From Minutocellus sp. GHC0000111 (Eukaryota): DNA of 64,000 nt. This document shows, piece by piece, positions 21,074 to 23,944 of the stretch; positions within the stretch are counted from its first letter, which is position 1; every line of letters begins with the position of its first letter. The position numbers and the translations under genes were made by a program. Under the pieces are notes generated by a model, which saw only the letters and a program-made list of their open reading frames with translations, made no database searches and was not told where the DNA came from. The DNA is taken from assembly GCA_977018835.1 (NCBI GenBank), contig OZ361257.1, forward strand, positions 3,844,001 through 3,908,000, given 5' to 3'.

Positions 21074-21263
21074 GGTATTGGTTATGCTTTGAAGAAGGAA
21101 ACAAGGTAATGCAAGTTCTCGTGTTCTTTGCATTGCTCCTCGATCGATTCAAAAGATTCGCTTGGAATGATGCTGCCCTTTCCTCATGTGGGATCTGGCA
21201 CTAACAGCGGAGAAGATTACGTCCCAAAGAAAGGCCTGAAACCTGACGCTGCTGCGACCATCT

Positions 21264-23863
21264 CACAGCACCATCTGCCAGCCGGATGACTCGCATACTT
21301 TTGGTCGCACTTTCGGTGGCCGGCCGGCGCGCGAAGCAACCGACCGGCGCGCCCAACGCGAGCCACCATGGCGGCAAAAATTCAAATTGCCGCCGCTATG
21401 TGCAGAACGAAGGCGATATCTCGCGCTGGTGTGGGAGAATTACGGCACGAGACCAACCAGGTACTCCCGACATCCTGGTGATATTCCCGTTGGTCTCGAT
21501 CCATAATTCTCCATGAGCAAAAAAACAACGGCCGCAATCCCGCGGTCAACACCGCAGACAGATTTGCGGTGCAGGACGCCCTGGCTGAACTGCTCGTCCG
21601 TCTTCGCAGAAAGGAACTTCATTACTACAATTTCATCGGCAACAACAACGACTCCTTGATGAATGTGTTGGGATGCAGTCCCATCATGCACGGCGCCGTC
21701 ATGCACACTGCGGGCATCTTGGGTTTGAAGAAGAAGAAACACGAAGACTGTGCGATGTGTTTTTTGTGAGGACAGACAACCAGAATGGATGGGATGAAAT
21801 GGTGTCAAGACACTGCCTTGCCGACGACGTTCAGCGAACCCCATACAAAAAGAGCATGTTTGTTCGCCTCGGTTCTATCAATCCTCGTGCAGCCGACGCT
21901 CTCCATGATGATGGATGGATGGCTTTCGACATGGTCACAGTCGAGCAACAATTTCGCCTCGAAACACCGCCGCCGCGGCTCAATTTGACGAAGGCATGTG
22001 ATGCATTCCTCAAGTCGGTCGCACCACACACATCGGTGGGATGTGCGGCGATGGACTACGAAATCAACAGGCAGATGTTGCTCGAGGCCCAGAAGTTCCC
22101 TGGTGGGTGCAATGGCCAGGACGATGGGTGGGACAATGACGACGACGTTGGGACGGTGGGCGCCCTGACCACGACGGAGGCCGGCGAGATCAGTGAGGAC
22201 GATGACGACGAAGACGAGGACTGTGTGCCCTGTTATGAGGACGAAGCTGACATTGCAAGAGAGGACGCTACACATGAAGCATGCATGCAGCAGCACTTTG
22301 AGAAGAATCGTCAGAAGCACGGTGATGGCGAGCCAGAGATGGGAGCTGTCGATGATCCCGAGGATGACGATGCCCCTCACTTCCATTTCCTGAAAAAGGC
22401 CGGCATTGAGGCGGCCGACTCAGGTAAAATAAGGGCAGTGCTGGCAGAATGCTGGAGAGCTTTATCTATTAATGTTTCTGATGGCAACAACAAGAAGAAA
22501 CCAAGGACAATGGAGTTCATCCACCATGACACCTCCACCAAAGGAGCTCTCCTAGAGCACAATCGCGAGGAAGATGGCATGACGGATGACGACATCAAAG
22601 AGCTCTGCAAAGCTTGCTCTAATTTGCTCCACACTCTTGACGCAACATGTTCCAGGTTTCTGAAATGGTGCATGAAATGGGATGATGAGGCAAAGAAGGC
22701 TGTGAGAGAGCTTGAAGCATTGATTGCAAGTGCCCTCAAGCAAGCACGGGCAATCGGCATTAGCACAACGCCCAAGTGGCACTTGCTCGAAGATCACATC
22801 TTGGACCAACACATTTGGCTAGTGAAGAATGGATGGGGCGGCATCTATTGGCTCGACGAATCGTTTGTAGAGCGAGCCCACCAAGAGGGCGTTAAGGAAG
22901 ATCGTCGGACTCAGGGCGTCAAGGGATATGAGGCCCAACAGACGGCGCAGTTCAAGGCTGAGGGGAGGGCATCCAATCCAAAGGTCGAGGAGAGGCGGGA
23001 GCGAAACTCTCGGGTGGCAAGAACAAGGAAAAGGACAAGGACCGAAGCTGTTAAAGCAGAAACTGATGACAAGCGCCAACAAATGATCATGATGGCCACC
23101 GATGGAGATGAGGATGTAGAGATGGGAGCAGGGCATGTATAAAATTAGAAAATGAAATTACACTGCTGCTACACAACACAACAAATGAATTGCACAATCC
23201 AACTTTTACAAACAGCATCGCGATTGAGCAAAAAAGTAAATAGTACACCCAAACAAACACATCACGTCCTTCTTAACTCACCCATTTATCTCCCAGACCA
23301 AAAAGTCCCTTTGTCGGGTTGATTGTTGCATAAACTTATCCCAATGCTATCTGTCTCTCCTCGGGCGCAAAATTATTGTCGGAATTCCGGGAGGTCGAGT
23401 GGGGATGCGATCGGTCGGGATCAGCGAGAGTCGGTCATACGGGGGGTGCGGCGCAATCCCGGCAGTTTATCATCAACAACAACGTGGGAAAGTACCAGAG
23501 GGTCTGGGGCATCACAACGGGAGCACGACGAGCACAAAGACGGAGCGATGGCACCACCCCAGAGAAACGAACGGCCGACAGATGGAGGAAAAGTAGGCCG
23601 ATGGTTCGTGGCGTTGATACGCAGCGGAGGCCAATCTGAGGATACAGTAAGCTTCAACTATATCCAAACATGATAATGAATGCGTATTTGGTACGAAAAT
23701 ATAGTTATACGCCGGCGCAACGCCGACGGACCACCATGGTGTTGGACGGTCAAAGAATGGGTGACGAACGAGATTGGGTTTTGGTGGGTTTCTTCGTGAC
23801 GTGTTCGTCTTCTGCCGAAAAACGCTTCATCCGACCGGCGAAACAAGACGAGATGGGGCTGTG
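21264..23863 (+). mobile_element. Transib/Chapaev/RAG1-related DNA transposon, 2600 bp, asymmetric TIRs, 4-bp TSD
   Basis: Ends CACAGCACCATCT and (reverse complement) CACAGCCCCATCT, 12/13 identical; ATCT duplicated at 21260-21263 and 23864-23867; internal ORF with TPKWHLLEDH...GGIYWLDESFVERAHQ. Confidence 0.88.
21513..23142 (+). pseudogene. Degenerate, probably internally deleted transposase of the 21264-23863 element
   Basis: Frames 21513, 21569 and 21673 join after single-base corrections in an A7 and a T6 run; Hx4H and Ex3Ex2H C-terminal motifs present; no recognisable RNase H Asp motifs. Confidence 0.72.
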
Positions 23864-23944
23864 ATCTGCCACGTTGTCTCATATTCTCAGAACTCTTTGA
23901 TCATTGGAATCTTCGTCGCATAATTACTTCCAAATAAGCACAAG

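Follow-up and report, generated by a model that had tools for sequence, protein, structure and literature searches.

The reaction of V(D)J recombination is efficient only with one short and one long end, a constraint known as the 12/23 rule. A transposon in the window (the whole 64-kb stretch of DNA that we analysed) has ends that differ by one helical turn, which raises the question of whether this asymmetry belongs to a family or to one copy, and whether it reflects a comparable way of pairing ends. The initial annotation had described a RAG1/Transib-related element with an exact 12/23 arrangement, a robust 11-bp offset, and ATCT as a target-site duplication (TSD) 4 bp long.

To answer this question, we delimited the element, which spans 21264-23863 (2,600 bp), has CAC...GTG termini, and is flanked by two copies of ATCT (Table 1). 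In two of the four runs (X2 and X5) contigs pass from the left flank straight into the right one with one ATCT between them, so the 4-bp duplication is real. The reading of ATCT as a TSD is thus borne out, and the empty-site allele whose absence would have counted against it is present. In run X1 a contig on the right flank is half as deep as the left flank, which a heterozygous insertion would explain. In X1, X2, and X5 the depth of the element exceeds that of its flanks hundreds-fold, and an X5 contig on the right inner block reaches 18,643 compared with 157 for the flank. Depth is no copy number, but the X5 value points to roughly 100 copies or more; no second copy was found inside the 64-kb window. 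Matches to this stretch also occur in RNA runs. These data show that the element family is real, recently mobile, and polymorphic for insertion.

Table 1. Coordinates of the element and its parts in the window, with the evidence for each.
Feature	Position	Strand	Evidence
Left TSD, ATCT	21260..21263	.	Single ATCT in empty allele (runs X2, X5)
Left tip block, 13 bp, starts CAC	21264..21276	+	12/13 identical to right tip; depth rises here
Left second block, directly after tip block (short end)	21277..21289	+	Sequence comparison; spacing in P0016
Subterminal inverted third copy of second block, 2 mismatches	21336..21348	-	Sequence comparison
Broken transposase gene	21569..23142	+	tblastn of P0025, 94-96% identity either side of junction
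Deletion junction, between 22554 and 22555	22549..22560	+	Most copies share it
TPKWHLLEDH, H(4)H zinc-ligand motif	22768..22797	+	P, K, and both H conserved across relatives
DESFVERAHQ, predicted catalytic glutamate (E1004 of P0025)	22855..22884	+	Nearly invariant column
Right second block	23827..23839	-	Gap-free cover by high-depth X5 contig
Extra 11 bp (one helical turn) of long right end	23840..23850	-	Continuous high depth, no 11-bp deletion row
Right tip block, 13 bp	23851..23863	-	Depth falls after 23863; other copies run into other flanks
Right TSD, ATCT	23864..23867	.	Sequence and empty allele

The element's neighbours are genes for a HAD hydrolase and an S41 peptidase, and the window is gene-dense and eukaryotic. 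The N-terminus of the S41 peptidase carries an ASAF motif, the diatom-type plastid targeting signal, so the host is probably a diatom. In run X1 a joint of the right end (23863) with the left end (21264) across four letters, at a depth close to that of a single copy, could come from tandem copies or from two ends joined to each other; it is consistent with, but no proof of, a 4-bp rule. All 11 positions of the empty target site (21257-21263 plus 23868-23871) agree with bases 7-17 of the element's left end, and an equally good match occurs at 16 of 61,221 window positions. This match, noted post hoc at one locus, may hint at targeting of end-like sequences. Differences from copy to copy are nearly all transitions, many of them CA/TG pairs as CpG methylation decay would give, yet CpG is not depleted in the window copy (observed/expected 0.98).

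Both ends of the window copy read as initially given. Counted inward from the tip, the block GCCRGYCGGATGA begins at 13 bp in the left end and at 24 bp in the right end, an offset of 11 bp (p = 0.02 in a shuffle test with any shift allowed). The letters of a CACAG heptamer followed by CGGATGA are present as described, but the similarity between the ends spans 13 bp rather than 7, and the structure is better written as a 13-bp block, 0 or 11 bp, and a second 13-bp block. Hits to the second block like the one at 21336-21348 number seven in 128,000 window positions, three of them inside the element.

We then compared copies by overlaying the right end with 480 contigs (182 from X1, 195 from X2, and 103 from X5; X17 contributed none). 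No row among these contigs has an 11-bp deletion at the right end, and the only deletions tabulated are of 1 bp. Exceptions are a right end from which 10 bp are missing, a loss that reaches the tip block and is seen in a single contig of X1 and another of X5, and right-end records of single-copy depth that contain 13 gaps, in X2 and X5. At the left end, no 11-bp insertion occurs among the best-supported rows of the whole-element overlay. The protein P0016, from another copy with a different flank, translates through the same left-end spacing. The long right end is therefore common to the family rather than a private indel of this copy.

The gene within the element is broken by a frameshift near 21750, where other copies lack 2 bp at 21749, and by the in-frame loss of residues 329-902 (574 aa) of the full protein. 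The ORF at 21589-23142 contains TPKWHLLEDH and DESFVERAHQ as first reported; a database search found 16 proteins, most of which share 87-97% identity with it. Two full-length members of one cluster, P0022 (1,089 aa) and P0025 (1,097 aa), have D516, D615, C632/C635, L703-H704, H978/H983, and E1004. The segment missing from the window copy holds the two catalytic aspartates D516 and D615 together with CxxC, LH, and YHGG, and only H(4)H and E1004 are left, so this copy cannot be catalytic. Restoring 1,722 bp to it gives approximately 4.3 kb, the size of the complete relatives L032 and L050. The deleted form occurs in 20 of the 24 stored proteins that span the site and the full form in 4 of 24; because the junction is common to those 20, one deletion derivative seems to have been amplified in trans. 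A sister family (P0009 and P0012, 58-70% identical) has its own, different internal deletions.

A search with P0025 found 623 relatives at E <= 0.001 among cluster representatives. P0017, a copy with a full core, was modelled from a 70-sequence alignment (pLDDT 85). The model matches RAG1 (Foldseek E 1.5e-12; Z 22.0, rmsd 4.3, 478 residues aligned, RAG1 459-1007) and HzTransib (6pqx; Foldseek E 7.7e-5, Z 20.9), and its match to the P-element transposase is far below both (Z 11.5). Since the RAG1 and HzTransib scores are close, the fold does not choose between them; no Chapaev structure was among the structure matches listed. The predicted fold of this full-core copy agrees with the proposal that the ORF is related to RAG1 and Transib, and the Foldseek and Z scores argue against an origin outside that superfamily. 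Residues 556-673 of P0017 form a long coiled-coil hairpin in the model, inserted between the LH and YHGG of the zinc-binding region.

Several other features of RAG1 were sought. The nonamer-binding domain of RAG1 gave no alignment to the P0017 model, and no GRP or GRK motif was found upstream of the core of the transposase. Pfam returned nothing significant for the window ORF or P0017, and sequence searches of the PDB returned no RAG1, the profile giving coiled-coil noise only. The ESM Atlas, which we take as a lead only, gave RAG1 clusters only below 0.9. A separate model of the N-terminal domain has a pLDDT of 47. There is no room for a RAG2-like gene in four of four complete relatives, in which at most 795 bp lie beside the transposase, and the window copy has 721 bp after the transposase stop. 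The RAG2-like partner for which the initial annotation had recommended a search was thus not found in any of these elements.

On these grounds we file the lineage as a Chapaev-related member of the CMCT clade (EnSpm-Mirage-Chapaev-Transib), as that clade is set out in the portions of PMC12730594 available to us. C632/C635 and H978/H983 lie between D615 and E1004 of P0025, and the CA...TG termini and TSD length (2-5 bp in the clade) agree with this assignment. The CAC...GTG termini and 4-bp TSD are within the range for Chapaev (3-4 bp), and the C(2)C, LH, and H(4)H motifs of Chapaev are all in the full-length protein, with H(4)H only in the window copy. The Chapa domain (PF12560) was not found in the N-terminal frames of the window; the same domain matches L009 (E 1e-8). 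Because this zinc-finger domain is absent, we rejected Chapaev proper and use the term Chapaev-related. The fold is predicted to be RAG1-core-like DDE, as in Transib, but Transib was rejected on a TSD of 4 rather than 5 bp (a length reported to vary within Transib), the lack of a heptamer with an A-rich nonamer, the lack of a GRP motif, and a GC-rich inner block. RAGL was rejected because no RAG2-like gene lies between the TIRs. The earlier superfamily placement therefore stands as regards the RAG1/Transib fold, but the lineage is nearer to Chapaev than to Transib or RAGL.

An intron-rich group that includes L009 matches the same profile and shares the C-terminal motifs. It forms one side of a long branch (SH-aLRT 100) in a quick unrooted tree of 71 rows that holds unnamed relatives only. 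L009 encodes both a Chapa-type domain and a RING finger. This intron-rich element of 6,166 bp combines a Chapaev-like protein with a 5-bp TSD of RAG/Transib length and a long left end.

Because one family says little about how widespread the asymmetry is, we turned to the ends of relatives. Scanning metagenome contigs with [VIM]TPKxHxxEDH yielded 116 stretches, and the profile matches 102 of the 121 loci fetched. Paired ends were sought at 29 loci and credible pairs were obtained at six; weak candidates such as L063 were left out, and no left end was found for L047. With the window copy this gave seven elements, five of which have a one-turn best shift at p <= 0.02 each. The shift is +11 in the window copy and in L005 (p 0.0005), +10 in L032 (p 0.0035) and L050 (p 0.001), and -10 in L009 (p 0.0005; 5-bp TSD), where the long end is the left one and not, as elsewhere, the right. 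For L019 the shifts 0 and +10 score equally (p = 0.36), and L052 lacks a second block (p = 0.76). None of the seven yielded a symmetric bipartite pair. The window family is 23-25% identical in protein to L005, L032, and L050, which lie on three separate branches. Offsets of 10-11 bp thus recur in distant relatives, well beyond the single copy first described.

A shared-tip subgroup allowed a closer view of the spacing. Its 12-bp tip has an identity of 0.94, and TG[ACG]GTA lies at offset 32-33 in eight of eight right ends and at 22-23 in both left ends. The chance of this placement is approximately 0.002 per sequence, although the motif was picked after inspection and some of the ends are kin (DNA identity 86% for L013/L047 and 97% for L009/L027). 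The initial annotation had proposed to test whether the spacing is kept while the spacer sequence varies. Positions 20-31 do vary, being at random identity (0.26), but positions 12-20 of the long ends are partly conserved (mean identity 0.47, often CTAC); the extra turn therefore cannot be regarded as spacer of a wholly neutral kind. Four right ends of the L005 subgroup have the start of the inner block at 26-27, and three left ends have it at 16. Among 11 intron-rich ends, TTA[AG], again a post hoc motif, is at offset 23 in three, at 32-33 in five, and in neither class in three. The RSS nonamer starts at offsets 19 and 30, so by position the inner motifs of the relatives occupy about the same zone.

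These relatives come with some uncertainties of assembly and origin. No flanking duplication is present in L005, L019, or L032, which are therefore probably collapsed assemblies; L050 has a 3-bp flank match that may be chance. No relatives were found in viral contigs, and one of three prokaryotic-genome matches, L120, matches the profile. L120 belongs to a bacterial MAG, on a contig of 2.3 kb, and is interrupted as a gene with introns would be. It is likely contamination, and a caution for claims of bacterial Transib-like elements.

The description of these ends as exactly 12/23 did not hold up. Relatives have offsets of 10 or 11 bp, the length of the tip block is 12-13 bp, an A-rich nonamer is absent, and the extra turn is not wholly neutral. 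The label is valid only when counting from the 7-mer to CGGATGA, so its exactness is a choice of frame. It is overstated, and the invariant is one helical turn of 10 or 11 bp.

The window copy is a non-autonomous, internally deleted cut-and-paste element, and we consider it reasonably probable that the full-length transposase, with its predicted RAG1/Transib fold, pairs a short with a long end. The enzyme would come in trans from intact copies of approximately 4.3 kb. A dimeric transposase would make its cuts at the CAC tips, in the manner of RAG1 and Transib, and a second DNA-binding part of the transposase would hold the inner block. Since the offset equals one turn, both ends would present the inner block on the same helical face. 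A complex that is tilted and asymmetric, like that of RAG on 12/23 signals, would then favour pairing of left with right ends in the absence of RAG2 or a nonamer; by this analogy we infer a short-with-long pairing rule. Against this mechanism, vertebrate RAG1 is reported to need RAG2 to enforce 12/23 (PMC8355894), and asymmetry is reported as probably without effect on protostome RAGL (PMC7204232).

An unlikely but serious alternative is that the extra turn is an additional protein site or bend, such that the left and right arrays of sites differ and no RAG-like pairing rule exists. The partial conservation of long-end positions 12-20, with its frequent CTAC, would fit this, as would the third inner-block copy at 21336-21348 in the left end and the absence of a GRP motif and a RAG2 partner. 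It accounts less well for an inner motif held at a fixed distance while positions 20-31 drift to random identity, or for a 10-11-bp offset in lineages with unrelated inner sequences. Phase-tolerant drift, in which the inner block stays usable only after indels of whole turns so that one-turn differences recur and spread without being required, seems improbable. All four non-animal-type elements with a clear offset share its direction on three branches, and a symmetric bipartite pair is missing from the seven tested, although the rare right ends that lack 10 bp, the reversed polarity of L009, and the coexistence of symmetric and asymmetric families in Transib (PMC9435367) are as drift would predict. 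A private indel or chance match in one copy, with ATCT not a TSD, is exceedingly improbable, for although the second block alone is moderately significant in the window copy (p = 0.02), this idea is largely refuted by the empty allele and the family-wide long right end, and the P0016 left end and the offsets in relatives also oppose it.

Preferred pairing of short with long ends can be compared with what is known of related systems. Chapaev has been treated as a distant clade of the same group as RAG1/Transib (PMC4411706). The window lineage shares with it CAC...GTG termini, a 3-4-bp TSD, C(2)C, LH, and H(4)H motifs, and a single gene, according to the available parts of PMC4079192, PMC4411706, and PMC12730594, but has no Chapa or RING domain and is separated by a long branch from the Chapa-bearing group. 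Ends resembling RSS12/RSS23 have been described for five Transib families (Transib5, Transib2_AG, and TransibN1-3_AG; PMC1131882). These have CAC tips, bipartite ends, one-turn asymmetry, no RAG2, and a related fold, as here; they differ in having a 5-bp TSD, a CACAATG heptamer, an A-rich nonamer, and an enzyme of approximately 700 aa (PMC1131882), whereas in the window family the TSD is 4 bp, the inner block is GC-rich, and the enzyme has 1,097 aa and a coiled-coil insertion. The AanRAGL element of the pelagophyte Aureococcus anophagefferens has spacers of 4 and 13 bp, and all Subgroup I Transibs are asymmetric (PMC9435367). AanRAGL is a stramenopile element, as the window family probably is, and like that family has a 13-bp tip block with a second block at unequal spacing; unlike it, AanRAGL has RAG2L and a 5-bp TSD (PMC9435367). 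The GDHG and YHGG motifs of the window clade had no occurrences in one supplementary file of that paper. PflRAGL-A has a 10-bp asymmetry, and asymmetric TIRs have been placed in the first RAGL (10.1101/2023.08.20.553239). The window family resembles PflRAGL-A and vertebrate RAG1/2 (PDB 5zdz, 6xnz) in core fold, a 10-11-bp asymmetry, and an inner motif in about the nonamer zone, but has no nonamer, no GRPR/K motif, and no RAG2, and identity in the structural alignment is approximately 11%.

One-turn asymmetry in Chapaev-type or diatom Transib elements was not found in the portions of the literature searched, which did not extend to Repbase reports or Yuan and Wessler (2011); such ends, or diatom Chapaevs, may have been described there. 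The word Chapaev was absent from the searched part of the PMC12730594 supplement.

The origin of the 12/23 rule and the need for RAG2 are debated (PMC8355894; 10.1101/2023.08.20.553239), and the published one-turn asymmetries come from Transib and RAG-like elements (AanRAGL and RAGL-A). Comparison of the ends indicates that highly divergent relatives without RAG2 have kept the one-turn asymmetry, and the design of one short and one long end that underlies the 12/23 rule likely reaches into a branch lacking a RAG2 partner. That a distant single-gene branch has this geometry in other sequences suggests that the geometry predates the nonamer and RAG2. We tentatively raise the possibility that one-turn asymmetry with obligatory short/long pairing was ancestral to RAG1, Transib, and Chapaev and was enforced by a single transposase with no RAG2, nonamer, or GRP-type NBD. 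Insertion polymorphism together with open full-length reading frames makes the pairing rule directly testable. If no pairing preference exists, this is an ordinary new Chapaev-related family. If the proposal is true, this recently mobile family would be a one-protein system for testing how the 12/23 rule began.
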